Assembly (NCBI GenBank): GCA_021204175.1
Contig: JAJPZT010000075.1
Coordinates: forward strand, 35,123-99,122
DNA: 64,000 nucleotides
Source: Clostridiales bacterium
GTDB lineage: Bacteria > Bacillota > Clostridia > Lachnospirales > CAG-274
Reading direction: 5' to 3'
The notes below the pieces were generated by a model. It was not told where the DNA came from, made no database searches, and was given only the letters and a program-made list of their open reading frames with translations. Both the position numbers and the translations under genes were made by a program. Numbering within the stretch: the first letter of the stretch is position 1; each line of letters starts with the position of its first letter. Shown here in pieces: positions 27,899 to 46,323 of the stretch.

Positions 27899-27929
27899 TT
27901 GACAAGGGGGGGGTCAGAAAGCTTATAAT
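27899..27929 (+). promoter_or_regulatory. consensus -35/-10 promoter with a G8 tract in a 19-nt spacer
   Basis: TTGACA (27899-27904), then A plus G8 (27906-27913) plus TCAGAAAGCT, then TATAAT (27924-27929). Confidence 0.5.
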
Positions 27930-29898: not shown

Positions 29899-29912
29899 TA
29901 ATATTTAAAGAA

Positions 29913-29945
29913 AGAGAGAGGCGGCTGAACCTCTCTCTTTTTTTG
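29913..29945 (+). terminator. rho-independent terminator
   Basis: AGAGAGAGG-CGGCTGAA-CCTCTCTCT followed by T7. Confidence 0.8.
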
Positions 29946-30210: not shown

Positions 30211-30239
30211 TTGAAAAAGTTCTTGAAGTGGTATATAAT
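30211..30239 (+). promoter_or_regulatory. sigma-A-type promoter upstream of the giant adhesin gene
   Basis: TTGAAA (30211-30216), a 17-nt spacer, then TATAAT (30234-30239). Confidence 0.5.
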
Positions 30240-30330
30240 AATTAAAAAGAACTTAAGGTTTGTGTAAAACTTTTTTAATGAAATATTAATAAATTGTTAA
30301 ATATGATCTCTTTCATAAAATAAAAATGAA

Positions 30331-30339
30331 GGGGGGGGG
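30331..30339 (+). repeat. G9 homopolymer 5 nt upstream of the adhesin TTG start
   Basis: Counted directly from the sequence: ATGAA-GGGGGGGGG-CTCGG-TTG. Confidence 0.8.
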
Positions 30340-30344
30340 CTCGG

Positions 30345-33300
30345 TTGGGCAGAAAAAATCAGTCGGAAGACAAATATTTTAAAAAACAAAGACGTAAAAA
30401 ACTATGGCACCGTTTGCTTTTGGCAGCCGGTTCCATTGTTGTGTTTATAACCACTTATATGCTTATCCTCCCTGCCATAACCGCTGAGGTGGGCTCAATC
30501 GAGCTTTTCGACGAGTCCCTTTCCTCCGGCAGCGCAGTAACCCCCGTCGAAGACGAAACCTACATTATTATAGAAGAAACTACCGAAGAAACGGTTGAAG
30601 AAACCACCGAGATTATATCTGAAGAAACAACAGAAGACCCGTCTGAAGCCCTTTCCGAAGAAACCTCTGACCAAGCCTTAGAGGAAACTACATCGGGAAC
30701 AAGCTCCGGCGGCACAGATACCTCCGGCGGCGAAACTTCCGAAGAAACTGCCGAAGCTGCCACAGATGAGGTCTCTGAGGAAATAACCGAAGAAGCAGCG
30801 GAGGAAACTACTGAAGAGGAGTTTGTTATAACAGCCGACAGTATGATTTATGCTCTTCTGGGCGAAGCAGGCATAGCTCTCACAAGTGAAGAGGACGGAG
30901 AAGAAGAGGAAGACGACGGCTCAATCGAGCTTACCCTTACCGCCACAGTCAGCGGCAGCAGCTATTATACTGACACATATGGCACTGAAATATCATTCAG
31001 AGGAACGGGAACAAACGACAGCTATAACTGTGAATATGACCCTGACACAGGTAACTTTTCCGTAGACCTTGCTATCGACTTTGTAATGTCAGCTGCGATT
31101 TTGACAAGCGGCAATGTAACCGATTATAACAACGACACTCTTAACGGCAGCTATTACGGAGTTTATTCAATCGATTTACCTGAGGGAATTATAGTTCCCG
31201 ACAATGTTCTTAACAAACGTTACGAAGGCGTTATTTCCGGAACAAGCACCGTACTTTTTGACCTTTATTTTGAGAAATATACAGACGAAACTACCGGAGC
31301 AACTCGCTACAGAGTTTATATGGGCTTTTTAAACAGCCAGATAACAGGTAATGAAGAGACAATCAAAGGTACAATCAGCCTTGAGGGCTACATCAGCTCA
31401 TCCAGCTACAGCGACGGCAGCGTTGTCGTAACGGTAGGCGGTGAAAATGTTATTGAGATTTCACCGGATGAAATAACCTACAGCAGCGGCGAAACCATAG
31501 ACGAGGATATTTACGTTAAAAAATCAGGCTCTTACAACACAACCACAGACGAAAGCGGAAACACTACATCAACAGTCAGCTACACTGTTATGGTTTATAC
31601 CAAAAAGGGTACGGGTGAAACCATAACCCTGACCGACAGCTTTACTACGGAGTTTTCTTCTTCCGTTTTGTCTGACCCTTCAAGCAGCCTTCAAAGCATA
31701 ACCGTAAGCACAGGCACAAACACAGCCTATGTTTACTGGGAGGGCAAAGCAGATAATTTTAATGACAGCGAATTTGTAGAGGATACAGAAAGCCCCATAA
31801 CTCTTACTAATGGCACAGGAAACTACACTTATTATTATGACATCGACGGAAATTTGGTTATTACTCTTCCCGGTCTCAGTGATGTAGACGGCAAAGACGG
31901 ACAGGAAACCATTCTTGGCAGCAGTGACTGGAGATATTCAAAGGAAGATGTTGAGGTTTATTATGTAACCTACACCTATAAGGTAAGCCCTCAATATTCT
32001 GACTCCACTGCCAATAACACCGTTAAGGCTTCAACAGAGGACACAACAGCAGTCGAAACCATAACCGACACCTCCTCTGCTGAGGTTACCGTATCCAAAA
32101 AGACCGCCATTTCAAAAACAGCGGAATATTATACCGAGACAGACAGCGACGGCAATGAAAACGGCTATATAAAATGGACTATTGTAGTGGGCGACGGCTC
32201 AGCCTCTCTTGCAGGCTATACCCTGACGGATACAATGTTCAGCTCCGTCGGAGGAATAGAAGCCCTCAATTATAGTTCATTATATGAAAATGTTCATGTT
32301 TATACCGGCTCTTCAGAAGATGACAGCAACTTTGTTTATCAATACTATCCGGCGAACTGTTTTAGTATTGTAGATGAAAACGGCGTATTAACAGGCATTA
32401 AATTTCTCGAAGATGCCGAAAGTCAATATACAATCGTCTATACAACAGAAGCTTCTTCGTGGGATCAAACATATTTATCCAACACGGCTACCCTTACCCC
32501 CACAGAAAGCACAGACCCCGATGTTACATATACCCACGATTACGGAGATTCGAGCTTGTCGGCAGGCACAGAGGTTACTGTTCCTGCGGCAGGGGGCGAC
32601 ACCCTTGACAAAAAGATAGGCACTCCCGAATTATCCTCTGACGGAAAAACCTATACCTTTCCCTGGACTGTAACCATAACCATTCCCACAGGGGGCATAC
32701 CCGCCGGGTCTGAAATCGAAGACAGCCCCAGCACGGATAACCACTATATGACCTATGACCAGGCTAAGGCTCTGGGTGAGCTTGTTCACGAGGTTTTCGG
32801 CGACAACACCTACGTCTCCGTAACCTTCAGAAACAGCAGCTGGCAGTGGATTCATATAGACAACCTTGACGAAAGCACTTATTATTACGGCTATAAAATA
32901 ACCTTTAATAAAGCTGTAGCCTATGAAACCTATTCACAATATACAAATCTGACCGAAGATAATAAGCAGAGTTTAGGCTTAATTGACAGTTTCACCTACA
33001 CATCGGGCGACACCACTGCAACAGCCTCATATGATCATTATGACAACAAGGTTACTTTAAACTACTACTCCACAGGCTCAATATCCGACAGTCCCGCTTC
33101 AAGAACCTTTTCAAACACAGTCAGCGGCGGCGGCAGCTATAAGTCGGCTTCATACACTTATACAAATAATGTGGTTAAATACGGCTATTATCAGTCTCAC
33201 GGAACTGCCACAAGCCCCTACGCCACAAGCTTTACATCGACTGACGGCGAGGTCTCATGGGTAGTTAAGGTAGTTTTAGATACCTCCAACAACTGTTATA

Positions 33301-36300
33301 CCATAACGGATACTCTGCCCACAGGGGTCACTCTGAAAAAACTTCAGGTTTCAAACAGCGCATCAGATTCCAACAGCAAGTCAACACTGTATGCGGAAAC
33401 AACCACCGTTGATCCCTCTGTTGAAACCACCACAGCTGACCCCTCGACGGAAACAACTACCGCAGACGCCGGAATTTCCGAAGGGGAAACCCTTTCGGGA
33501 ATATATGACGGTGACTTAGATGTTTCCTACACGCTGGGCACAAGCGACAATACCGTTACGGTTTATGCCAATTACGGTGAAAATGCCAATGCAAGCAGCA
33601 TAACCCTTTATCTTTTCTATACCTGTCAGATAGCCGATGACTATCAAGGCGAAAATACTGCTTTTAATAACACTGTAAAAGTAAAAAATACTACTACCGA
33701 CAAAGACTACGGCTCAGGCTCTCAAACCACAACGGTATATTGGGATGTCTCTACGGGAACGGAAACAAAAACCGTCTCAAAGGATGACTATTTCGACACC
33801 AACAACAACAAAATAAAATACGCCATAACCATAGACAATGACAACGGAAACCCGTATACATATACTGTGACAAATGAAGACGGCTCAACAAGTCAGGAAT
33901 ATGACGACGATATGGTGATTTACGACGTCCTTTCCTACAACAGCTACCCCACCTACGGTCTTGTAAGAAGCGCAAGCCTTCAAAGCGACACCCTTAAGGT
34001 ATATGTAGACGACGGAACGCTGACCATAGCCGAAGACAAAACAGTCAGCGGCGGAACAGAGCTTGATTCGTCTCAATACAGCTGGACTCTTGAAAAGGTG
34101 GTCAACACCGGCTATGACGGAACGGAAGCCGTAGTTCAGACAATAAAGGTTACTTTGCCCAATGACGGAAGAAAATATGTTTTAGCATATGCATATAAAA
34201 TATCTATCATTACAGACGAAGTTTGGGCGAATAACTACACCTGGATCGACAACGACGGCACTGACGTAAAGGCTCACGCCACAAACTACGCCTATCTCAC
34301 CGTAAACGGCGAAACCAAAGTAACAACAGACTCAATTGAAACAACGGAATCCTATAACTTTGATTCGGTATCAGCCGAAGGAAGTACGGGTACGGGCTAC
34401 ACAATATATAAGGTTGATAAAGACAATTTCGCCCTGAAGCTTGAGGGAGCAACCTTTGACCTCTATGTTTATAACAAGGACGCTACCCCTGTAGGCTTTG
34501 AAAAGGTAGCAAGCATAACCACCAATTCAAAGGGCACAGCAAGCATTTCCGGCGTTATAAAATATTTGGACACATCTACGGGAACTTATTATGACCAAAA
34601 AGGCGATAACTGGGAACCTTACTACAGAATAACAGACCCCTCAGACAGCTCAAAATACATCTATATTCCCATAAACACACTCTGTTATTTTGTAGAGTCT
34701 GAAGCACCCACAGACTATCAGCTTGACGGAACAAAATATTATTTCTATTACGGCGAAACCATAGCCACTCTTTTAACAAGTGTTACAGGTCACGAATATG
34801 CCACTGACGTAACAGAAGCCGTAAATATTATTTTGGGCAATTCGGAGTATATCACTAACGGCCACACAGTGGATTATTACTCTGAAAAAACAAAAATTTC
34901 CGTTATAAAGTCATGGACGAATAACGAAGAAGACCCTAACGACACATACGAAAAAACCGACGACAGCCTTAACTTCACACTTTACAGAATCCGCAAGGAC
35001 TTAGACGGAAACTATTGGCCTGAAGAAGATGATGAGGACGAAACGTCTACCTCTGAAGGAGCAACGGAAGCCACAACCGAAGTGGTTACAGTAGGAGAAA
35101 TACCTTGGCAAGTAGATTTTCAGTGGAGTACAAATGTTGCTTCAGGAACTGTCGGGTATACAGAAAACACTAATTCATTAAAACTATCTTTATATCATCA
35201 ATATGCAGCTATAAATGAATCTGCCGGATATATATGGTATCCGGGGGTAACAATAACTGACGGAAACAGTAATGTTTTAGTAGAATATACTGGGTCGTCT
35301 TATGGTGAGGGTACGCTTGTAAGCGGCAATGGTTCTTGGACGGGTTCAACGACCAGTGCTGTAGGAGGTACATTTACAGCCACGATTAACCTAACAGATT
35401 CTGTTAAAGAAAAAGGCTTGATAATTAAACTTACCGATACTAACAATAGCGACACAGAAATATCTGTTTCTTTTGCTCTGTCAAGTGCTTCTGCCACAAC
35501 CACCACAGAAGCGGCTTCCGAGGCCTCTACCGAAGAAGTTTCAGAAGTCTCAACGGAAACCACCACCACAGTCCTCTATGCTCACGTTTTCCAAGACGAC
35601 GTAATAGAGACCACCACAGACGAACAGGGTAACTCCGAGGTGGTGGGGCACACCTTTAATAACGATTATAAGGATTATGAAAAGATAACCGATTCAAGTG
35701 AAAACTTCTTCAAATTCTACGGGGCTTTGACCGACACAAACGGCTCACAAACCTACAACGCTTACAAAGCCAACACAGCCACGCTGCTGACCAGATCCTT
35801 CAAGATGCAGACCAACGTAGACAGCGTCGTGGGCTCAGGCTCAACGACGATTGAATTCACTTCTCAATTGGGCGGTGTGCTGACTATGGTTTTCACAGAT
35901 AAAACCGACACCAACGCAGTAATTATTAACAGCTCCGACGGAACATCTCTAAACAAAACGGCGTCTAACTATAAGCTTCAGTGTCACCTTGACGCAGGCA
36001 GCTACACCATAAAAAAGAGTACATCCTCTTATGTAGTTTACATCTCCTTTGAAGAAGGAGCAGGGGATACATCCTCAGACGGCAACTCCGAGATTTTGAA
36101 CTTCAACGACGGCACAAAAGCCAACGACTTCTTTACTGTCAGCGGCTCCACAACCAGCAGCTACGGCGAGGTTACATATGTAAACTACTACGACACAAGC
36201 TTTACAAGTGCGACAGCTCTGAAAATGGGTTCTTCCTCGTCAATTACCTTTGAAAGCGCAAACGCAGGCACTCTCTATATGGTTTTCACAAACCCCAAGA

Positions 36301-38951
36301 AGGCTGCCTCCGTAGGCGCAAGTATCGACGGTAACGAACACAAGGCGTCAATCACCGACACAACCACCACAGACGGCGAGTATTATATATATGTGCTTTC
36401 CACATACATTGAAGCCGGCAGCCACACAATTAAGAGAATAGGCTCTACCGAATACCTTCTTTATTACATTCAGTTTGTTCCCGACGATTTCGGAAGCGGC
36501 GAGTGGAAGGAGCTTAACACTGACATAACCTCTATTGGCAAGAAAGTCAGCACCTTTACAATAAGCTACGCTTCAAACTGGCGGTGGACCTCAGAAAGTC
36601 TGCCAAGCCAGTGGATTAATGAAGAAACAGGCGAGGTTTTAGGCTACTACGAATATTACGTAGTTGAAGAAAGCCGCTATGACCCTCAGGACTCTTCAAA
36701 ACAGTGCTTCTATACCCTTTATATGAATAATGAGGGTATCGTCTCAGGCTCAATTAAGGTTTCAAACCGTATTAACCCCACTACAAGCGGCGTTGTGAGC
36801 CTTGACGTAAACAAGGTTTGGTATCAGGACGGAAAACAGCTGACATCACCGACAATTGACGACTACTCCGTTTCCTACACACTTTACAGAAAGGTCGTTC
36901 TTCTTTCCTCAACCGATCAGGACACAGGCGGAACTTATTCGGTGAACTTCGACAACAACATTTCCACCTTCTTCACCACAACGGGCACAACCCAGTCCGG
37001 CTCTTCAACCATAGGCACAGGCAACTACGGCGGCACGTCATACTCAACCACTCTTGCTTTTGACAGCACTTCAAGTACAGCCCCAAGCATAGCCTTTGAC
37101 ACCTTAGCCGACAGCGGCGTCCTGACCCTTGTTTTCAGTACGTACCTTCCGCCGGATGTCTATAACTCAAGCTCAAGCTATACCTCCGGCACTACAAACT
37201 ATGTCACCGCCGACGGAACTAACTATTATGCTATTTCTGATGACAGCGGCACTTTGAACAATACATTATATGTTGTTGACAGTTCTTCCTCAAGTGGTTA
37301 TAAGGAATGGGACGGCTCCGGTACATCTATAACCTATTATGCATTCTTTAACGAGAATTTGCAGGTTGATGAAAAGTATACAAGTGATACGAGCTGGAAT
37401 GATGATGATTTTACTTATACAGGCGACACAGACGATACAAGTAAGTTAGTACAGATTTATCAGTATACTGCAAATTCAATAGATGCTACTATGTATCGTC
37501 AAACTGATGCAAATAAGTTCGACAGAAGTAACGGTAACGGAAAAACCTATACTCTTGCAAGAACAAACAGTAACAGCAGTACTACTGATCCTAACAATTT
37601 TACAAGAATAAGAAATAATACATTAACCACAACCGTTGACGAAAAAACCGTAACCGGCGATGGAAAGTGTATAAATCTCTACAGAAGTACTGATGGCGGA
37701 AAAAGCTTCGTATCTATGGAGGGATATACTATAGACGAGGTTAAGGATCAGGAAACGGAAATTAACAACAGCCGTGCCTACTACATAAAGTCAGGCGACA
37801 GCTACATCCAAACCGACGGCAAATTCTACACCCTTCAGCAGTACAACACTGTGGGCTACGCCTTTACCCTGACTGTCCCCGGAGAAACATCAACTGTTTA
37901 TCAGTATGTTTATAACCCGGACACCGAAACCCTGACCATAACCGCAGGCGGCTCGGAGGTTTACAGCGGTTCAATTTCAGACTGCCCCGCAGCTTATCTC
38001 ACAAGCCTTGACATAGACGAAGACAACAACACTGTGGTCTTTGAAATTCCTCTAAGTGTCTACACGGGAGACTACTCAAGCGGCTATAAGGTGGGCTGTG
38101 TAAGCTCGGCTCTCTGTTATCTCTATTATGCCGAATATTTCTATAAGTATAATGACGCTAAAACCGGTATTGCCGTAGGCACAGGCACACTTGACGCCTC
38201 TAACGACTGGTCTGAAGAGTGGAGCAGTCTTACCTACCCCGTTTATGACGCAGAGGGCAACGGCACAATTATAGGCTATTATTCCTATTACATTGTGGAA
38301 ACCTCAGCCGACGGCGAAACGGGAACAACCTATTCGCCCACATATTCAGTCACTATGTATACTCAGGCTCTTGATTCTGACCTTGCTGACCTTGCGGAGA
38401 CGTATAAAGCGACGCTTACTCCTGATGAGAACACTTCAGCAGGAACAACGGCTTACTATAATAGTGATAGTGAACTTATTTATACTGAAACGGCAACAAC
38501 TGACGGCGAGGGTGTTACAACCTACACATATACGGCTTCAAGCGGTGAAACAATTTCGGATATTACAACATATCTTCTTAATTTGTATCTCGAAACTCTT
38601 GAAACCGATAAAGATTCCGAGGGCAATATTACCTATTGCAATACAACCCGTGATCCTAACGATAACTCTGTAATAAGCTCGCAGACGGTTTTGTATTATC
38701 AAGTCTCTGACGGAAACTATTATATCGTTTCATCTGTCAATGACGGCACAAGCTTAACGGCTGCTACCGCAGAAGCCGCTAAAATCAGCAGCTTCACAAT
38801 CACCAACACGGTGGAGGTTCAGGACGTTGTTCTGCCCTCAAGCGGCGGAGACGGCGGATTTAAGTATATTTTAGCAGGAACGCTCACAAGCCTTGGGGCG
38901 ATTCTGCTTCTATATAAATGCAGGAAAGGTTTGAGCACAAACTCCCGATGA
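30345..38951 (+). CDS. giant (2868 aa) sortase-anchored surface adhesin, pilus tip-adhesin candidate
   Basis: Has a basic N-terminus plus TM signal and an E/T-rich acidic linker. Repeated Cna-A-like K...W.I.V modules are present. SpaA/Cna-B-like modules occur (GATFDLYVY...YFVESEAPTDYQL; KISVIKSW...; LDVNKVW...). The C-terminal sorting signal is LPSSG (38832-38846) plus a hydrophobic helix plus KCRKG. Confidence 0.85.
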   Translation: MGRKNQSEDKYFKKQRRKKLWHRLLLAAGSIVVFITTYMLILPAITAEVGSIELFDESLSSGSAVTPVEDETYIIIEETTEETVEETTEIISEETTEDPSEALSEETSDQALEETTSGTSSGGTDTSGGETSEETAEAATDEVSEEITEEAAEETTEEEFVITADSMIYALLGEAGIALTSEEDGEEEEDDGSIELTLTATVSGSSYYTDTYGTEISFRGTGTNDSYNCEYDPDTGNFSVDLAIDFVMSAAILTSGNVTDYNNDTLNGSYYGVYSIDLPEGIIVPDNVLNKRYEGVISGTSTVLFDLYFEKYTDETTGATRYRVYMGFLNSQITGNEETIKGTISLEGYISSSSYSDGSVVVTVGGENVIEISPDEITYSSGETIDEDIYVKKSGSYNTTTDESGNTTSTVSYTVMVYTKKGTGETITLTDSFTTEFSSSVLSDPSSSLQSITVSTGTNTAYVYWEGKADNFNDSEFVEDTESPITLTNGTGNYTYYYDIDGNLVITLPGLSDVDGKDGQETILGSSDWRYSKEDVEVYYVTYTYKVSPQYSDSTANNTVKASTEDTTAVETITDTSSAEVTVSKKTAISKTAEYYTETDSDGNENGYIKWTIVVGDGSASLAGYTLTDTMFSSVGGIEALNYSSLYENVHVYTGSSEDDSNFVYQYYPANCFSIVDENGVLTGIKFLEDAESQYTIVYTTEASSWDQTYLSNTATLTPTESTDPDVTYTHDYGDSSLSAGTEVTVPAAGGDTLDKKIGTPELSSDGKTYTFPWTVTITIPTGGIPAGSEIEDSPSTDNHYMTYDQAKALGELVHEVFGDNTYVSVTFRNSSWQWIHIDNLDESTYYYGYKITFNKAVAYETYSQYTNLTEDNKQSLGLIDSFTYTSGDTTATASYDHYDNKVTLNYYSTGSISDSPASRTFSNTVSGGGSYKSASYTYTNNVVKYGYYQSHGTATSPYATSFTSTDGEVSWVVKVVLDTSNNCYTITDTLPTGVTLKKLQVSNSASDSNSKSTLYAETTTVDPSVETTTADPSTETTTADAGISEGETLSGIYDGDLDVSYTLGTSDNTVTVYANYGENANASSITLYLFYTCQIADDYQGENTAFNNTVKVKNTTTDKDYGSGSQTTTVYWDVSTGTETKTVSKDDYFDTNNNKIKYAITIDNDNGNPYTYTVTNEDGSTSQEYDDDMVIYDVLSYNSYPTYGLVRSASLQSDTLKVYVDDGTLTIAEDKTVSGGTELDSSQYSWTLEKVVNTGYDGTEAVVQTIKVTLPNDGRKYVLAYAYKISIITDEVWANNYTWIDNDGTDVKAHATNYAYLTVNGETKVTTDSIETTESYNFDSVSAEGSTGTGYTIYKVDKDNFALKLEGATFDLYVYNKDATPVGFEKVASITTNSKGTASISGVIKYLDTSTGTYYDQKGDNWEPYYRITDPSDSSKYIYIPINTLCYFVESEAPTDYQLDGTKYYFYYGETIATLLTSVTGHEYATDVTEAVNIILGNSEYITNGHTVDYYSEKTKISVIKSWTNNEEDPNDTYEKTDDSLNFTLYRIRKDLDGNYWPEEDDEDETSTSEGATEATTEVVTVGEIPWQVDFQWSTNVASGTVGYTENTNSLKLSLYHQYAAINESAGYIWYPGVTITDGNSNVLVEYTGSSYGEGTLVSGNGSWTGSTTSAVGGTFTATINLTDSVKEKGLIIKLTDTNNSDTEISVSFALSSASATTTTEAASEASTEEVSEVSTETTTTVLYAHVFQDDVIETTTDEQGNSEVVGHTFNNDYKDYEKITDSSENFFKFYGALTDTNGSQTYNAYKANTATLLTRSFKMQTNVDSVVGSGSTTIEFTSQLGGVLTMVFTDKTDTNAVIINSSDGTSLNKTASNYKLQCHLDAGSYTIKKSTSSYVVYISFEEGAGDTSSDGNSEILNFNDGTKANDFFTVSGSTTSSYGEVTYVNYYDTSFTSATALKMGSSSSITFESANAGTLYMVFTNPKKAASVGASIDGNEHKASITDTTTTDGEYYIYVLSTYIEAGSHTIKRIGSTEYLLYYIQFVPDDFGSGEWKELNTDITSIGKKVSTFTISYASNWRWTSESLPSQWINEETGEVLGYYEYYVVEESRYDPQDSSKQCFYTLYMNNEGIVSGSIKVSNRINPTTSGVVSLDVNKVWYQDGKQLTSPTIDDYSVSYTLYRKVVLLSSTDQDTGGTYSVNFDNNISTFFTTTGTTQSGSSTIGTGNYGGTSYSTTLAFDSTSSTAPSIAFDTLADSGVLTLVFSTYLPPDVYNSSSSYTSGTTNYVTADGTNYYAISDDSGTLNNTLYVVDSSSSSGYKEWDGSGTSITYYAFFNENLQVDEKYTSDTSWNDDDFTYTGDTDDTSKLVQIYQYTANSIDATMYRQTDANKFDRSNGNGKTYTLARTNSNSSTTDPNNFTRIRNNTLTTTVDEKTVTGDGKCINLYRSTDGGKSFVSMEGYTIDEVKDQETEINNSRAYYIKSGDSYIQTDGKFYTLQQYNTVGYAFTLTVPGETSTVYQYVYNPDTETLTITAGGSEVYSGSISDCPAAYLTSLDIDEDNNTVVFEIPLSVYTGDYSSGYKVGCVSSALCYLYYAEYFYKYNDAKTGIAVGTGTLDASNDWSEEWSSLTYPVYDAEGNGTIIGYYSYYIVETSADGETGTTYSPTYSVTMYTQALDSDLADLAETYKATLTPDENTSAGTTAYYNSDSELIYTETATTDGEGVTTYTYTASSGETISDITTYLLNLYLETLETDKDSEGNITYCNTTRDPNDNSVISSQTVLYYQVSDGNYYIVSSVNDGTSLTAATAEAAKISSFTITNTVEVQDVVLPSSGGDGGFKYILAGTLTSLGAILLLYKCRKGLSTNSR

Positions 38952-39095
38952 TGGGGCAGAGCTTAAGCAGAGCCTATGTGCTCAGACTGTGTAAATAAAA
39001 TTAAGGGAGATTTTAAAGACGAAGGGGAGAAACGGTCTTTTATATATAATCCCACGAAAGGAGTGATGTTTAGAAAAAGAGGATTAAATGTCAAT

Positions 39096-39189
39096 CGCTG
39101 AAAACATTAGTTTTCAGCGAAAGAGGAGGGTCAACGGAGTGCAGTCTTGCTTTGGCGTTTACGCCGAAGCAAACGAACGAAGTTTGACC
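39096..39189 (+). repeat. intergenic structured repeat, family A, copy 2
   Basis: CGCTGAAAAC-ATTA-GTTTTCAGCG hairpin, a TGCTTTGGCG-TTTA-CGCCGAAGCA hairpin, and an AAGTTTGACC tail. Aligns with copies 1 and 3. Confidence 0.75.
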
Positions 39190-39196
39190 CGACGAG

Positions 39197-39283
39197 CATC
39201 CCCTTTTAAGGGGAGGGGGACCGCCCATACTGATTTTTTGTAAAAAAATCAGTACAGGCGGTGGTGGGGTATGTTCCATTTGA
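39197..39283 (+). repeat. intergenic structured repeat, family B, degenerate copy fused to family A copy 2
   Basis: CATCCCCTTTTAAGGGGAGG, a long hairpin ACCGCCCATACTGATTTTTT-GT-AAAAAAATCAGTACAGGCGGT, and a GGGGTATGTTCCATTTG tail. Confidence 0.65.
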
Positions 39284-39405
39284 AGCTACTAATTGAAGCT
39301 ACTAAGTCTTTGTAAATGGAACACAGTAATTGTGCAAACTCGGCAATATCAAGTAAAAAATCGAATAGATGGGAAACAACTCACACACAAATAACGACAA
39401 TTTGT

Positions 39406-39415
39406 GGGGGGGGGG
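39406..39415 (+). repeat. G10 homopolymer in the pilin-1 leader
   Basis: Counted directly. It lies 70 nt upstream of ATG 39486. Confidence 0.8.
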
Positions 39416-39485
39416 TAGATTTAGCCGGCCCGTATTAATCGGAAGCGTTTATCAACCTCCACAACTAAGAAAGGATGGTACTTTT

Positions 39486-41219
39486 ATGAAGAAAGTAACA
39501 AGATTTTTTAGCCTCCTCCTCGCAATAGCAATGGTTTTGGCAATGAACTTCGGTACTTTCACCGTTCCGGCGGAGGAAACTACCTATACACTTACAATTA
39601 ACAAACCCACAACGGGACACACATATTCGGCATATCAGATCTTCACAGGTGTTTTGTCTACAGACGGCAAGACCCTCTCAAATATTGCTTGGGGCTCTGC
39701 TACGACAGCTAAATCTTCGGATATTATCACAGCTTTAAAAACTGAACTTGGCTTAGCAGATAACACTGATTACTCAGCAGCCGACATAGCTGCATTGCTT
39801 ACAACAGGCAATATTGAAGCAGTAGCTAAAATATTAGCAACTTATAACGAAGGCTATACATACTTAGGCTCTGCAACATCTTCAGCTGAATGTACAGAAG
39901 GCGGTGAAGGGAAAATCGTTACTATCAGCAAACTTCCCGCAGGTTACTATTTGGTTATAGATACCTTAACAGGTACAGTTGCAGACTATGACGTATATTC
40001 ATCATACATCATTGAAGTAGTGGGAGACGCAACAGCTACCACAAAGCAGGACACACCTGAAATTCAAAAGAAGGTTGACGATAAAGACGATTCTACAGGT
40101 ACTGAAGACAGCACAAGTTGGCAGGATTCAGCTGACTACGACATCGGCGACGCAGTTCCCTTCCAATATACTGTAAAATTGCCCAGTAATTATGCTGACT
40201 ATGACACATATAAGCTCATATTCCACGATGAACAGAGTGACGGCTTGACATTCAACAATGATGTGGCAATAACAGTTTACATCGACGGCGATACAGAAAA
40301 CACATCTCAAGAGAATATTGTTGAACTTTCAACTACTCAGTATAAGGTTAATACAGATCAGCAAAGTGACAGCTGTGATTTTGAGATTACAATCAGTGAC
40401 TTAAAATCTGTTTCAACTTCTATTACTGCAAGCAGTGTAATCGTTGTAACCTATACATCAACACTCAATGATCACGCAGCAGTGGGCTCAACAGGCAATG
40501 ACAACGAGGTTTACCTTGAATACTCAAACAATCCTAACGATTCTTCCAAAACAGGTAAAACTCCGAAGGATAAAGTAACGGTATTCACCTTTGATGTAGC
40601 TATACACAAGGTAGACAGCAGCGGTAATCCTCTGGGCGGCGCAGACTTCACACTTTATAAGTATGACGCCGAAAGCACAACTTGGGTAGAGGTTTCAACA
40701 GAAACTTCCACATCTGCAGACCCTTCAACCTCAAAAGCTGTTATAAAGACAGTGGAAGATGAATCTTATACTACAGTAGTGGTTGAGAACAGTACCGAAG
40801 TTACAACTACAGTAACCGTAGAAAAGAGCAAATTCACCTTCAGCGGTCTTGACGCAGGTCAGTATATGCTTAAGGAGACAACAACTCCCGACGGATATAA
40901 CACAGCCGCAGATACTTACTTCACAATCGTAGCTTCACACTCTACAACTGCATCTGATCCCGAACTTACAGAGCTTTATATAACAGACGCAGACGGTACG
41001 GTTTTATCGAATAAATATTCCGGAGAAGAAGGTGCTCAATCACCGACATTTACTGTTGATAATTCAGCCGGAATTTCGACTAACATCATAAACTACACAG
41101 GTGCTGAACTGCCTTCAACCGGCGGTATGGGTACAAAAATATTTTATACTTTGGGCGGAGTCCTTGTTTTAGGGGCAGGCGTTCTTCTGATTGTTAAGAG
41201 AAGAATGAGAAACGCTTGA
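39486..41219 (+). CDS. LPXTG-anchored backbone pilin paralogue 1 (isopeptide-forming fimbrial subunit family)
   Basis: Signal peptide MKKVTRFFSLLLAIAMVLAMNFG. E-box-like YMLKETTTPDGYN. A SpaA/Cna-B-like C-terminal domain. Sorting signal LPSTG (41109-41123) plus TM plus KRRMRNA. An AAAGGATGG SD precedes the start. Confidence 0.85.
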   Translation: MKKVTRFFSLLLAIAMVLAMNFGTFTVPAEETTYTLTINKPTTGHTYSAYQIFTGVLSTDGKTLSNIAWGSATTAKSSDIITALKTELGLADNTDYSAADIAALLTTGNIEAVAKILATYNEGYTYLGSATSSAECTEGGEGKIVTISKLPAGYYLVIDTLTGTVADYDVYSSYIIEVVGDATATTKQDTPEIQKKVDDKDDSTGTEDSTSWQDSADYDIGDAVPFQYTVKLPSNYADYDTYKLIFHDEQSDGLTFNNDVAITVYIDGDTENTSQENIVELSTTQYKVNTDQQSDSCDFEITISDLKSVSTSITASSVIVVTYTSTLNDHAAVGSTGNDNEVYLEYSNNPNDSSKTGKTPKDKVTVFTFDVAIHKVDSSGNPLGGADFTLYKYDAESTTWVEVSTETSTSADPSTSKAVIKTVEDESYTTVVVENSTEVTTTVTVEKSKFTFSGLDAGQYMLKETTTPDGYNTAADTYFTIVASHSTTASDPELTELYITDADGTVLSNKYSGEEGAQSPTFTVDNSAGISTNIINYTGAELPSTGGMGTKIFYTLGGVLVLGAGVLLIVKRRMRNA

Positions 41220-41285: not shown

Positions 41286-41467
41286 GAACCGCCGATATCT
41301 TACCGGCGGCTGTCCAAAGGTAAAAAATATTTTTGATAACTCCATATTATTCCTCTGTTAGCTGTCCTGTGGTATGTATAAGCCTTTCTGTAAGTGTCAG
41401 TCTATGTCTTAAGGGACAAAGCCAAAACCAAAAATGTATTTTGACACGAAACTTAATTTTTTAAAGT

Positions 41468-41474
41468 GGGGGGG
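41468..41474 (+). repeat. G7 homopolymer in the pilin-2 leader
   Basis: Counted directly. It lies 76 nt upstream of ATG 41551. Confidence 0.8.
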
Positions 41475-41550
41475 TAATCGATACGTTAAGGAAACCGTTT
41501 AACGTTTATCGTCCTCCACAAAAAAATCCACAAAGAAAGGACAGAATAAT

Positions 41551-43266
41551 ATGAAAAAAATATCTAAAATATTAAGCCTCCTCCTCGCATTAACTATGGT
41601 TCTCTCTATGAACCTCGGCGTTTTAACCGCTCACGCAGATAGTTACACAATTAAAATTAATGAAAGTACTACAGACTATAAATATGAAGCTTATCAGATC
41701 TTTGACGGCGATTTATCCGGCAATACTCAGGGCAGCTATGTATTATCCAACATCGTTTGGGGTACTAATATAAGCAAAGACGGAACTCCTGAATATTCAA
41801 CTGTAATGACAGCTGTTAAGGAAATAACAATTGACAATTCCACATATCCGTTTGAAAACTGCACCTCTGCTGCAGATGTAGCTGATGTATTGAAAGATCT
41901 TTCGAAAGATGCAGCCCTTCTGCAGGAATTTGCTGATGTAATCTCTAAATATATAACAGGCAGCGGTGTTGCAAGTGAGTATAAAACAGACCACTATGAA
42001 ATTTCAATATCCGACCCCGGCTATTATCTTGTAAAGAATACATCTGCACCTGATGAAGACGGAGTTTACACAAGATTTATTCTTTTGGTTGTAGGTGATG
42101 TTGAGGCAACTCCTAAGTCTGCTGTACCTTCAGTAGAAAAGAAGGTTTATGAAGAATCCTATAACAGTGTAGCTCAAGAAATATCCGATTACGGTACTTA
42201 TTTCAATGATGTAGCTGACTATGACATCGGTGATTCGATTGACTTCAAATTTATAGGTACACTTCCCGATAACTTGAGTTCTTATTCAACTTATAAATAT
42301 GTATTCCACGATACAATGGACGCCGGTCTTACTTTTGACAGCGACAGTGTTGTGGTTACTATTGACGGCACAACTGTTCCGGCATCATATAGTGGAACTA
42401 CAAACTACACAGTTGTTTATGACGCTTCTAGTGCACAGACTGACGGCTGTACATTTGAAATAAGCTTTAGTGATATTTTAAGTCTTGTGGATTCTACAGG
42501 TGCAAAAATATCAGTATCAAGTACAAGCAAGGTTGTTGTTACATATAAAGCTACACTGAATGAAAATGCTAAAATAGGTCTTCCCGGCAACGTGAACGAA
42601 GTTTATCTTCAATATTCAAACAACCCCAATGAAGGCGGCAGCGGCGACACAGGTACAACACCTAAAGACAAGGTTATCGTTTTCACATATGAACTTGACG
42701 TAACAAAGGTTGACGGAACTGATAATACTAAAACTCTTGAAAACGCTGAATTTAAGCTTTATAAGGAAGTAAGCGGCGTTAAGTATTATGCTAAAGTTAC
42801 AAACGGCAAGGTAACAGGCTGGACAACAGACCCAGATGAAGCTGCTGTATTAACTTCTGGCACTGACGGTAAATTCAGCATAGCAGGTCTTGATGACGGC
42901 ACATACTTCCTGTTAGAGACAAAGGCTCCTACAGGGTATAATCTTCTTTCCGACCCTGTTGAACTTACTATAACGGCAAACACAGTTAATGGTCAGAGCT
43001 GGTCCGGAACCGCAACTGATGCTTTAGCCGCATGTGACTCTAATACAGACCCTGACTCAGCTTCATTAACAATTACAGTGGGTACAGCAAAAACCAGCGG
43101 AAATTCAACTGATGGTACAGTTGGTACAACTGTAGCGAATAACACAGGTGCTACACTTCCCGAAACAGGCGGTATGGGCACAAAGATCTTCTACACATTA
43201 GGCGGAATACTTGTTGTTTGCGCAGGCGTTCTCCTTATTGTTAAGAGAAGAATGAGAAACGCTTAA
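41551..43266 (+). CDS. LPXTG-anchored backbone pilin paralogue 2
   Basis: Signal peptide MKKISKILSLLLALTMVLSMNLG. E-box-like YFLLETKAPTGYN. Sorting signal LPETG (43156-43170). The C-terminal tail GGMGTKIFYTLGG..AGVLLIVKRRMRNA is shared with pilin 1. Confidence 0.85.
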   Translation: MKKISKILSLLLALTMVLSMNLGVLTAHADSYTIKINESTTDYKYEAYQIFDGDLSGNTQGSYVLSNIVWGTNISKDGTPEYSTVMTAVKEITIDNSTYPFENCTSAADVADVLKDLSKDAALLQEFADVISKYITGSGVASEYKTDHYEISISDPGYYLVKNTSAPDEDGVYTRFILLVVGDVEATPKSAVPSVEKKVYEESYNSVAQEISDYGTYFNDVADYDIGDSIDFKFIGTLPDNLSSYSTYKYVFHDTMDAGLTFDSDSVVVTIDGTTVPASYSGTTNYTVVYDASSAQTDGCTFEISFSDILSLVDSTGAKISVSSTSKVVVTYKATLNENAKIGLPGNVNEVYLQYSNNPNEGGSGDTGTTPKDKVIVFTYELDVTKVDGTDNTKTLENAEFKLYKEVSGVKYYAKVTNGKVTGWTTDPDEAAVLTSGTDGKFSIAGLDDGTYFLLETKAPTGYNLLSDPVELTITANTVNGQSWSGTATDALAACDSNTDPDSASLTITVGTAKTSGNSTDGTVGTTVANNTGATLPETGGMGTKIFYTLGGILVVCAGVLLIVKRRMRNA

Positions 43267-43605: not shown

Positions 43606-44463
43606 ATGAAAATTGACAAAGTGACAATATTTTTGTTTTTAATTTTACTGGGCGGAATGGGTCTGCTTTTATATCCCACTGTCAGCGACTATTGGAACTC
43701 ATTCCACCAGTCAAGAGCCATAGCCTCATATGTAGAGGCGGTTGAAAGCTTAAGCACAGAGGACTATGAAGCGATTATTCAGGCGGCAAGAGACTATAAC
43801 GCAAAGCTTTATAACAACCCCGGCAGGTGGCAAATGACGGAGGCAGAACTTGAGGAGTATAACAGTCTCCTTGACGTTTCAGGCTCAGGAATTATGGGCT
43901 ATATCGACATAGACAAAATCAATGTGGAGCTGCCTGTTTATCACACTGTAGACGACGCTGTTCTTCAGGTCGCCGTGGGGCATATGCCCGGCTCTTCACT
44001 GCCAATCGGCGGAACAAACACCCACGCCGTTTTGTCAGGTCACAGGGGTCTGCCTTCAGCAAGGCTTTTTACTGATTTGGATAAGCTGACAGAAAAGGAC
44101 ACATTTGTAATTACGTTTCTTGACGAAAAAATTACCTACGAGGTTGACCAAATTAATATCGTAGAGCCCACCGACGCTTCAAAGCTTGCTTTTGCCCCCG
44201 GGGAGGATATTGTTACACTTATAACCTGTACACCCTACGGCGTAAATTCTCACAGGCTTATGATTAGAGGTCACAGGGTGGAAAACGCAGAGGAAGAAAT
44301 TGTTTTGAATGTGTCGGCTGACGCAAATAAAATTGACCCGGTTATTGTTGCGCCTATGGTAGCAGTTCCCATACTGCTGCTGTTGTTTGCGGTTATGATG
44401 GTAAAAACAAGCAAAAAGGGAAATAAAAAGGAAAACAAGAAGGAAAATAATGATAAACAGTAA
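43606..44463 (+). CDS. class C (pilin-polymerising) sortase
   Basis: 285 aa with an N-terminal TM segment, the catalytic His block VLSGHRG, TLITCTPYG with the Cys, a conserved Arg (LMIRGHR), and the C-terminal TM typical of class C. Confidence 0.88.
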   Translation: MKIDKVTIFLFLILLGGMGLLLYPTVSDYWNSFHQSRAIASYVEAVESLSTEDYEAIIQAARDYNAKLYNNPGRWQMTEAELEEYNSLLDVSGSGIMGYIDIDKINVELPVYHTVDDAVLQVAVGHMPGSSLPIGGTNTHAVLSGHRGLPSARLFTDLDKLTEKDTFVITFLDEKITYEVDQINIVEPTDASKLAFAPGEDIVTLITCTPYGVNSHRLMIRGHRVENAEEEIVLNVSADANKIDPVIVAPMVAVPILLLLFAVMMVKTSKKGNKKENKKENNDKQ

Positions 44464-44482
44464 AAATTCAGGCGGTGTTTCT

Positions 44483-45694
44483 ATGAAAAAAAACTTTGTT
44501 TTAGGCTTAATTTGTGCAGTTTTAGGGGCTTTGGCTTTGTCTGTGACGGCGTTTGCCGACAACGACGGCTCCATATCGCTTGACTGCGATGTGGAGGGTA
44601 TTACCTATATGCTTTACGGCGTAGACGACTATTATGAGGTGGGGGACGAAACTTACGATAATGTATACTATGCTTATAAAATCGACCCTAATGGGTCCTC
44701 TGCCGATTTTACTGCGTCGGCTTATATTCTTCGAGATGACGTTCAGGCTTTATATACGGCGGTGACCGACAGCGAGGGCGAGGCTGTGTTTTCAGACCTC
44801 GACGACGGGGAGTATCTGCTTGTGGCTGAGGTTTACAGTGACGGCGCATTTGTTTATGTGGCTGTGCCGGCTGTAGTTACTGTTTACAGCGGTGAGGTTA
44901 CGAATGTCAGCGGTAAAATCGCAGTTACGTCCCTTACTGAGTCGGAGGACGTGGAGTCAATTTCCGCGCTGAAGGTTTGGAGCGGCGACTATGACGATGA
45001 AACGCTGGAGAAGGGGATAACAGTTCAGCTTTTGCGTGACGGCAAGATTTATGACGAACGGGAATTGAACAGCGACAACAACTGGCGCTGTACATGGAGT
45101 AACCTTGTGTCTTCTTATAACTGGCTCGTGGTGGAAAAAGAGGTTCCGGACGGGTATATGCTGAATATCGAACAGGACGGCACTGTTTTTATAATTACAA
45201 ACAGTACTCTTAAGGGAGACCCCGAGGGGGGTTCCGAAGGGGGAACGGAAGCCACAACAGAGGGAGAAGGCGAAGTCACAACGGATAAATCCTCCGGAGG
45301 TGAAGGGGAAACTACCACAGAAGCGGCTGCCGAAACTACAACAACTTCAAAAACCAACAGATCAGGAGGGGGAACTCCGAAGTCATTAAACCCCGAAACT
45401 GAAACGGAAACTGCCGCATCGGCAGAAAAGGGCGAAGGCTCTACATCGGAAAGCCCCACAAGCCCTACGGACAGCCCCGACGATGGTGAACAGGACACTA
45501 CTGCGGAAAGCAGTTCGGAAGAGCCGCCTGCGGAAACTACCTCGGCAGGGAATGACGAGCCACAGGGAAACGAACCCCCTGAAAGCAGCGAGAGCCTGCC
45601 CCAGACGGGTCAGCTTTGGTTCCCGGTTCCTATACTTTCATGCGTGGGAGCACTGTTTTTGATTATCGGAATAGGCAGAAGGAGAATGAGCTGA
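44483..45694 (+). CDS. Cna-B-domain LPXTG protein with a Pro/Glu/Thr-rich stalk, basal (anchor) pilin candidate
   Basis: Has a signal peptide and a prealbumin-like domain (TDSEGEAVFSDLDDGEYLLVAE). A Cna-B domain is present (ALKVWSGD...NWRCTWSNL...VVEKEVPDGY). A low-complexity P/E/T/S region follows, then LPQTG (45596-45610) plus TM plus RRRMS. The alternative start at 44450 overlaps the sortase stop. Confidence 0.72.
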   Translation: MKKNFVLGLICAVLGALALSVTAFADNDGSISLDCDVEGITYMLYGVDDYYEVGDETYDNVYYAYKIDPNGSSADFTASAYILRDDVQALYTAVTDSEGEAVFSDLDDGEYLLVAEVYSDGAFVYVAVPAVVTVYSGEVTNVSGKIAVTSLTESEDVESISALKVWSGDYDDETLEKGITVQLLRDGKIYDERELNSDNNWRCTWSNLVSSYNWLVVEKEVPDGYMLNIEQDGTVFIITNSTLKGDPEGGSEGGTEATTEGEGEVTTDKSSGGEGETTTEAAAETTTTSKTNRSGGGTPKSLNPETETETAASAEKGEGSTSESPTSPTDSPDDGEQDTTAESSSEEPPAETTSAGNDEPQGNEPPESSESLPQTGQLWFPVPILSCVGALFLIIGIGRRRMS

Positions 45695-46323
45695 TGAAGA
45701 AAAAAGGCAGTGTTTTTATTGCCCTTGGGATTGTGATGATTTTGGGGGCGTTTTTGCTGACGGGGTATAATGTTCTTGACAGCTTAAGGGCTGAAAGAGC
45801 GGCTGCGGCTGAAGCGGAGGCACTGAGAGCGAAGCTTGAGGAAGCGGCTGCTGAGGCGCTTGATAATTTTACTATTGACGAGAAGCCCCTTTATGTGCGT
45901 TATCCCGATATGAAGATGCCCGAGATTGAGATTGACGGGGTAAAATATGTGGGGATGCTGAGTGTGCCCGGGCTGGGGCTGGAGCTGCCTGTTAAGGGCG
46001 AGTTCAGTATGGCAGGGCTCAGGACTGCGCCTTGCCGTTATGCCGGGTCGGTTTATAAGGACAATATGATAATTTGCGGGCATAATTACAGCTCACATTT
46101 CGGCAGTTTGAAAAATATTAAGGTGGGGGACGGCGTGGAGTTTACCGACGGGGACGGAAATGTTTTTGATTATGTGGTTTCGGATATTGCCCAGCTTGAC
46201 GGGTCGGATGTTTCGGGAATGACGGAAAAACAGGAGGACGACAGCTGGGATATGACGCTTTTTACCTGTACGCTGAGCGGCAGCCAGAGAGTCACCGTCA
46301 GACTTTTGAGAATTGAACAATAA
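45694..46323 (+). CDS. second sortase (small, non-class-C; probable cell-wall anchoring sortase)
   Basis: Has an N-terminal TM segment, a His block (IICGHNY) and TLFTCT with the Cys. An ATGA overlap joins it to the preceding gene. Confidence 0.8.
   Translation: MKKKGSVFIALGIVMILGAFLLTGYNVLDSLRAERAAAAEAEALRAKLEEAAAEALDNFTIDEKPLYVRYPDMKMPEIEIDGVKYVGMLSVPGLGLELPVKGEFSMAGLRTAPCRYAGSVYKDNMIICGHNYSSHFGSLKNIKVGDGVEFTDGDGNVFDYVVSDIAQLDGSDVSGMTEKQEDDSWDMTLFTCTLSGSQRVTVRLLRIEQ

Follow-up and report, generated by a model that had tools for sequence, protein, structure and literature searches.

Repeat-driven phase variation is textbook material for Gram-negative pathogens, and one of its forms relies on homopolymers placed in promoter spacers (Neisseria porA and opc, Bordetella fim, Haemophilus hif). 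For Gram-positive gut commensals, it is known mainly from bifidobacterial pili. In Bifidobacterium breve UCC2003, sortase-dependent pilus clusters are switched by replication slippage in a G tract, the length of which varies within and between populations (PMC9187656). Here, we consider a run of nine Gs (G9) that immediately precedes the gene for a putative pilus tip adhesin in an uncultured Clostridiales bacterium. The gene heads a sortase-dependent pilus island within a 64,000-nucleotide (nt) stretch of a metagenome-assembled genome (GCA_021204175.1, contig JAJPZT010000075.1, positions 35,123 to 99,122), hereafter the window. As in B. breve, a G run of ~10 nt is found at the 5′ end of the first sortase-pilus gene of a Gram-positive gut commensal. 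However, the B. breve run is intragenic, separating the part that encodes the signal peptide from the remainder, and acts by frame (ON/OFF), whereas the run described here lies 5′ of a conserved start codon, forms a Shine-Dalgarno (SD) element, and cannot change the frame; moreover, the host is a member of the Clostridiales and not an actinobacterium. With the conserved TTG start located downstream from the run, the locus differs from the intragenic frame switches of the B. breve pil and Neisseria pilC type. On balance, and with modest confidence, we lean to the view that the run is the SD of the adhesin mRNA and one of four G runs in the island, that its length grades translation, and that an ATG just upstream of it is a bystander.

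The nearest functional analogue, judged by comparison, appears to be the G-repeat in the leader of Helicobacter pylori tlpB, which gives graded control through pairing with the C/U-rich small RNA (sRNA) RepG (PMC8295292). In both cases, a homopolymer of Gs is located close to the ribosome-binding site in the leader of an mRNA, there is a C/U-rich RNA partner (here a proposed one), and the effect is graded by length (in our case, predicted). In contrast to the adhesin run, the tlpB repeat depends on a trans-acting sRNA and does not itself serve as the SD; the pyrimidine partners that we propose are the tail of the 16S rRNA and a C/U-rich segment in cis. In Mycobacterium tuberculosis, a +1 insertion in the poly-G of the espR 5′ untranslated region (UTR) was measured to raise translation, and leader refolding was proposed (PMC11898584), although espR encodes a regulator rather than a surface adhesin. 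The tip pilin EbpA of Enterococcus faecalis is translated from a rare ATT codon and its amount is throttled at initiation (PMC4447247). It is thus a pilus tip protein with a non-ATG start, as here, but without a repeat tract or heritable variation. Finally, the Pil1 locus of Streptococcus gallolyticus is switched by leader-peptide attenuation (PMC3894217), and it shares with our locus a Gram-positive pilus and a short upstream open reading frame (ORF) whose length depends on repeat number. Pil1 depends on translation of its leader peptide and on a terminator located downstream, whereas the upstream ORF in the window has neither an SD nor a terminator. We considered leader-peptide attenuation as a role for this ORF and rejected it, given that its ATG lacks an SD and that no terminator-like site was found on the + strand between 30340 and 31600.

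The leader of the adhesin gene reads, on the + strand, ATG (30326-30328), AA, G9 (30331-30339), CTCGG, and TTG (30345-30347). These coordinates had been given in a preliminary description of the window; we re-read them and all are correct. The adhesin frame is closed upstream by an in-frame TGA (30327-30329), so that the TTG is the first possible start of the 2868-amino-acid (aa) protein. The protein has been deposited with the identical TTG start (MCD8239002.1, in an NCBI metagenome-assembled genome labeled “Clostridiales bacterium”). To obtain the products at other tract lengths, the region was rebuilt in silico with 6 to 13 Gs and the frame of the ATG was translated. At G9, the ATG at 30326 opens a frame of 18 aa (MKGGGSVGQKKSVGRQIF*). 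Eight Gs put it in the adhesin frame (MKGGARLGRKNQ...), as do 11 (MKGGGARLGRKNQ...), and products of 41 aa and 40 aa result at G10 and G7, respectively. The preliminary description had listed the outcomes for G8 to G11, and every one of them was reproduced. It should be noted that an ATG upstream in an AT-rich leader is unremarkable on its own.

The choice of start codon can be evaluated by comparison with relatives. A one-genome-per-species scan for relatives of the N-terminal region found more than 450, from which 80 loci were kept. These share a signal-peptide motif, VVF[IVC]T[TV]Y[MA]L, and at 82 of the 85 motif sites examined a start codon is positioned 90-102 nt 5′ of the motif, most often at 96 nt (66 are ATG, 10 TTG, and 6 GTG). 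A protein search for close relatives was swamped by the acidic low-complexity region, although it yielded three homologues (P0001-P0003) for the comparison of starts. In the window, the TTG is 93 nt from the motif (VVFITTYML), inside the family range, which agrees with its earlier designation as the adhesin start. The upstream ATG, were it in frame, would be at 111 nt. It lies 18 nt 5′ of the family-conserved start, and the N-terminus that it would provide exceeds the family norm by 6 aa.

The closest relatives are the most informative. A 46% identical adhesin (locus L008) has GGG-CTAAG-TTG-AGC-AGG-AAA-AAT, with the TTG at the same position and the contig ending inside the G run. In a 36% identical adhesin (L009), a G9 run is followed by TAAGAG and this by ATG-AGC-AGG-AAA-AAT, and in L007 the start region is GAGGG-TAAAC-TTG. 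Overall, TTG is conserved in three of the four closest relatives for which the start can be read. In L009, the TAA between the run and the start codon is in frame with the ATG, and thus no N-terminal extension is possible in that species at any tract length. This counters the earlier proposal that tract length matters through the frame of the upstream ATG. The feature that is conserved is a G-rich element that precedes, by 5-6 nt, a start codon of fixed position, and the run is therefore best read as an SD.

Some other characteristics of the adhesin family are worth recording. The family includes Streptococcus equinus and many Oscillospiraceae and Lachnospiraceae, and its N-terminal segment is very conserved (W21, VVFxTxYxLILPAIT), as is the fixed distance from start codon to motif (window 30345-30500; L007-L086). 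This N-terminal signal type has no description in Pfam or NCBIfam. In most relatives (e.g., L001 9326-9952, L002 1502-2092), a signal peptidase I gene (Peptidase_S26) is found directly 5′ of the adhesin, which then starts ~20-50 nt after it. In the window and in L009, the adhesin instead follows a long AT-rich leader that has its own promoter.

Several observations support the run as the SD. The 20 nt before the TTG form the strongest anti-SD duplex of the 36 gene starts in the window (−14.9 kcal/mol), whereas the 20 nt before the ATG at 30326 form the weakest (+1.8 kcal/mol). The preliminary description had taken the G run to be the SD of the TTG and had held that the ATG lacks one of its own; the duplex energies bear out both statements, and for the former the slot occupied by SDs across the family agrees. 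The genes around the adhesin carry ordinary AGGAGG-type SDs, and therefore the organism depends on SDs. In the family, every one of the 82 genes has a purine-rich SD (AAGGAGG- or GGGGG-type) in this slot. The longest G-run within the slot is 2 nt in 41 genes, 3 nt in 22, 4 nt in five, 5 nt in eight, 6 nt in four, and 9 nt in two, with none at 7 or 8 nt. The two 9-nt cases are the window and L009, and the truncated L008 is likely a third species with a long run in the SD slot. From these sequences, G9 appears to be an expanded version of a G-rich SD that is common in the adhesin family. Window and L009 are 70% identical in the promoter block and 79% identical at the coding start but only 48% identical in the leader between promoter and run. 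A run of a kind expected to mutate fast seems nevertheless to have been kept at nine in a species in which the adhesin itself is only 36% identical.

The 3′ tail of the 16S rRNA in Firmicutes (…CCUCCUUUCU) is all pyrimidine, and because of this the G run can pair with it over its whole length through G-C and G-U pairs. In the duplex model, the pairing energy saturates at about G7-G8. The preliminary description also expected the spacing of SD and TTG to change with tract length. This does not hold, as the 3′ edge of the homopolymer is fixed at 5 nt from the TTG whatever the number of Gs.

The terminator that follows the upstream 465-aa gene (0 of 200 shuffles fold as well) closes that gene, and the adhesin is therefore a separate transcription unit. 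Its promoter predicts a 5′ UTR of ~100 nt, with G9 beginning 92 nt after the −10 element; L009 also has TTGAAA-17-TATAAT, ~103 nt 5′ of its G9 run. We considered a promoter-spacer role for the G9 run and rejected it, because the run is not between the −35 and −10 elements and the promoter is ~92 nt upstream. The promoter-spacer type is matched instead by a G8 run further 5′ in the island (27906-27913). The region 30300-30360 folds at −12.8 kcal/mol (z = −3.0; 0 of 200 shuffles were as good), and the resulting predicted hairpin would bury the upstream ATG along with the first five Gs of the run. When modeled over a range of tract lengths, the number of unpaired Gs rises almost linearly, from 0.6 at G6 to 3.4 at G9 and 5.0 at G11.

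Given this anatomy, we propose the following sequence of events. The adhesin gene would be transcribed from the conserved TTGAAA-17-TATAAT promoter ~100 nt upstream of the G run, and the ribosome would pair with the run through G-C and G-U pairs and initiate at the TTG five bases downstream. The four runs of the island appear to sit at the 5′ control regions of four transcription units (in a promoter spacer, as an SD, and in two pilin leaders), and they probably change length by slipped-strand mispairing. In the case of the SD run, such a change would leave unaltered both the adhesin frame and the minimal spacing from SD to start. What it would set is the number of Gs that are free of a competing C/U-rich hairpin (arm UCUCUUUC) and the pairing registers that are open to the ribosome. 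The outcome would be graded adhesin translation, rather than ON/OFF control, on top of a weak TTG codon. We infer this graded tuning of initiation by tract length from modeling, and the hairpin-competition step, also modeled, is the part of the argument that we consider weakest. Graded tuning would suit a tip protein that is needed at one copy per pilus.

The preliminary description spoke of an ON/OFF or rheostat switch. A mutable control point is plausible, given that the sibling runs vary between samples, and the frame logic built on the ATG is the portion that fails. The G run is more likely to be a mutable dial on adhesin translation than a frame switch for the ATG. The placement is that of simple-sequence-repeat loci, a homopolymer of ~7 nt or longer in the 5′ region of a gene for a surface structure. 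We are tempted to extend this to the entire pilus, as a switchboard of four G-homopolymer dials in which the adhesin dial is the ribosome-binding site itself, set by the 16S rRNA in competition with a C/U-rich strand in cis, although this larger scheme is speculative and we regard it as rather improbable as a whole. If true, it would represent heritable graded translational control of a mode not described for Gram-positive pili.

The window contains four G/C runs of at least 7 nt. All are Gs on the sense strand, all fall within 14 kb, and each is in the 5′ region of one of the consecutive units of the pilus island, at distances from 5 to 76 nt ahead of the start codon. For the two pilin runs, length variation can be observed directly by comparing contigs of this organism from three sequencing runs. 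Before pilin 1, the window has G10 and SRR15221343 (L087) has G9. Before pilin 2, the window and SRR15221345 both have G7, SRR15221343 has G10, and SRR15221346 has G9. No other indels occur in ~4 kb, and the flanking sequences are ~99.9% identical. A third case involves the promoter run, which is G8 with a 19-nt spacer in the window versus G9 with a 20-nt spacer in the homologous promoter of a relative (L089). The region 27899-27929 looks, by its sequence, like a classical promoter-spacer phase switch in a low state; the 162-aa and 465-aa genes behind it are without family hits. Contig ends also coincide with runs: the 8 Gs are precisely the first bases of Logan contig L003, and contigs from two other samples (L088 and L090) begin at the 3′ edge of the run before pilin 1.

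The adhesin run is covered by one sample (SRR15221345), and exact-protein look-ups match the adhesin there only. Its own length variation is thus projected from the sibling runs, and an effect of such variation on translation is predicted from the RNA-folding and duplex models. Two metagenome scans, one with a variable-gap pattern around the tract and the other with a degenerate signal-peptide pattern, returned no matches. A protein search with an 82-aa N-terminal query gave no candidates, and a query free of low complexity gave one distant match.

How unusual the runs are was estimated analytically. Under a first-order Markov model of the window, 0.22 G/C runs of at least 9 nt are expected and two are observed (P = 0.02). 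In related loci, there are four runs of at least 7 nt in 870 kb (two of them in L009), a rate of 0.29 per 64 kb, from which the probability of four or more in the window is 2.5e-4. A G9 run in L039 was considered as a relative of the adhesin run and set aside, as it is inside a minus-strand ORF and unrelated. The second run in L009, a G8 at 1236-1243, is intergenic, ~4.7 kb 5′ of the adhesin of that locus, and not clearly before any gene.

Several of our results count against graded control by tract length, and they deserve to be considered together. The only other assembly that covers 30331-30339 (L003) also has G9 and was assembled through the run, although it probably derives from the same reads, and no second sequence of the same species with a different length at these positions was found. 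The sequestering hairpin, which is itself a prediction, was tested in L009 and is not conserved there. Given a fixed 3′ edge and a duplex that is saturated by G7-G8 in the model, lengths near nine may be translated alike. Conservation of a long run rests on two, perhaps three, species. Also, runs of at least 7 nt are not significantly in excess based on composition alone (3.8 expected under the Markov model, four observed).

These points bear most directly on the simplest alternative, in which the run is just an unusually long G-rich SD that drifts neutrally in length and has no regulatory role. We consider this a real, if minority, possibility. SDs with G5-G6 are common in the family, pairing saturates by G7-G8 while the SD-start spacing is independent of length, and L003 assembled cleanly as G9. 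Neutral drift is harder to reconcile with the jump in SD-slot run lengths from 6 to 9 (none at 7 or 8), with the retention of nine Gs in a species with a 36% identical adhesin despite fast mutation, with the variation that does occur in three other G runs at control regions of the island, or with the great rarity of such runs in related DNA. A little less probable, in our estimation, is that the count of nine is an artefact of sequencing or assembly, or is one allele of a mixed population, in which case the state of the tract in the window would carry little information. Illumina data are weak where Gs repeat and databases may give a wrong length for a G tract (PMC9187656), the sibling runs are places at which contigs break, and the window is from a metagenome-assembled genome. 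Two assemblies give the same count, G9, but they probably share their reads, and neither the SD role nor the TTG start depends on the exact count.

Two further explanations appear unlikely to us, to differing degrees. The run could act through a partner other than the ribosome, such as a C/U-rich RepG-like sRNA or a protein that reads the G runs of all four leaders, or could act on transcription by pausing, premature termination, or RNA polymerase slippage. Four G runs in a single island could suggest a common reader, and in H. pylori RepG does target a variable G-repeat in a 5′ UTR (PMC8295292); in addition, the G run of each pilin leader is predicted to pair with a conserved CCUCCAC block. 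However, the four runs are at differing positions relative to their genes (5, 48, 70, and 76 nt), an Rfam scan of the window gave 0 hits (the sRNA search was confined to this window scan), and its position as an SD already explains where the adhesin run is placed. Least credible of all is that tract length brings the upstream ATG into frame, so that G8 and G11 give an ATG-initiated adhesin and G9 and G10 are OFF, or low and rescued by the TTG. The frame arithmetic is correct, and intragenic G tracts do switch bifidobacterial pilus genes ON and OFF (PMC9187656). The G8 product begins with MKGGA, superficially like the MKHGA of the distant homologue P0003, and we had entertained this likeness as a sign of an ancestral ATG until the start positions of 82 genes led us to drop it. 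Against such a frame switch, the ATG lacks an SD (it is the weakest of the 36 starts) and is in a predicted stem, and its use would add 6 aa to the N-terminus relative to the family norm. L008 keeps the TTG and L009 has the in-frame TAA, so the run is conserved as an SD and not as a frame link. Finally, initiation at a codon 5′ of the G run is not open to a ribosome that is positioned on that run. We thus judge the upstream ATG and its frame arithmetic to be incidental, a decoy that calls for caution in annotation. The features on which our preferred reading, the run as a mutable SD, is based are listed with their neighbors in Table 1.

Table 1. Coordinates of the adhesin leader, the G runs, and the pilus island genes within the window
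Feature	Position	Strand	Basis and remarks
G8 run	27906-27913	+	In spacer of TTGACA-19-TATAAT (27899..27929), before 162-aa and 465-aa genes
Intrinsic terminator of upstream 465-aa gene	29906..29945	+	16-bp stem, then T run; −21.1 kcal/mol, z = −5.0
Sigma-70-type promoter of adhesin, TTGAAA-17-TATAAT	30211..30239	+	11/12 consensus match; conserved in L009
Predicted RNA hairpin, UCUCUUUCAU (30307-30316) with AUGAAGGGGG (30326-35)	30307..30335	+	Folding of 30300-30360
Upstream ATG and 18-codon out-of-frame ORF (G9 state)	30326..30382	+	Translation; no SD; judged incidental
G9 homopolymer, SD element of adhesin, 5 nt 5′ of TTG; candidate hypermutable tract	30331..30339	+	Sequence; family SD slot
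2868-aa sortase-substrate surface protein, putative pilus tip adhesin, TTG start	30345..38951	+	CBM77; LPSSG C-terminus
G10 run	39406-39415	+	70 nt before pilin-1 ATG (39486); length-polymorphic
Backbone pilin 1 (paralogous to pilin 2)	39486-41219	+	GramPos_pilinBB, SpaA, and LPXTG anchor (Gram_pos_anchor) domains
G7 run	41468-41474	+	76 nt before pilin-2 ATG (41551); length-polymorphic
Backbone pilin 2 (paralogous to pilin 1)	41551-43266	+	GramPos_pilinBB, SpaA, and LPXTG anchor (Gram_pos_anchor) domains
Sortase, Cna_B protein, second sortase	43606..46323	+	Pfam Sortase and Cna_B hits

In this uncultured member of the Clostridiales, G runs are distributed over a whole pilus island, with between-sample length variation that is direct at two of them. 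The island-wide pattern and the use of a run as the SD are unusual, and graded tuning through a homopolymeric Shine-Dalgarno would extend the known range of simple-repeat phase variation. If length does tune initiation, the locus would offer a compact and testable example of a mutable ribosome-binding site. The two pilin runs may allow switching between the two pilus shafts independently. If both are true, single cells could vary adhesin dose and the choice of pilus shaft independently, which would be relevant to gut colonization and immune evasion.

The island has the composition of a sortase-dependent pilus cluster, with SpaA/Cna_B-type pilins, LPXTG-type signals, and an adjoining sortase. 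The LPSSG at the C-terminus of the adhesin is followed by a hydrophobic segment and then a basic tail (KCRKG), and the protein has, in addition to the CBM77 domain identified by Pfam, the acidic low-complexity region mentioned above. A terminator-like hairpin and a G run precede each backbone pilin gene, and one of the hairpins follows pilin 1. In the pilin leaders (39400-39470 and 41462-41520), GUGGGGG can pair with the conserved block CGTTTATCnnCCTCCACAA ~45 nt downstream, and this pairing encloses an inner hairpin (fold z = −1.35 and −2.75). Upstream of pilin 2, the order is TTGACA (41441-46), 15 nt, TAAAGT, and then directly the G run. At the nucleotide level, the two backbone pilins align only over their last 123 nt (41095-41217 versus 43142-43264), the sorting-signal region, with 82% identity; the remainder has diverged.

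The intergenic region between the adhesin and pilin 1 (38952-39485) has hairpins at 39095-39120 and 39220-39262 (the latter with 20-nt arms), as well as a 10-nt inverted repeat (39272-81 / 39314-23) around a perfect tandem 13-mer (TTGAAGCTACTAA ×2, 39280-39305). Contigs of two samples break at 39150-39167. Lastly, in the 94% identical relative (L089 2012-3040, GCA_965306305.1), a 154-aa and 465-aa gene pair is present with no adhesin after it. An unrelated minus-strand gene follows the pair, and the composition of the island therefore differs between lineages.

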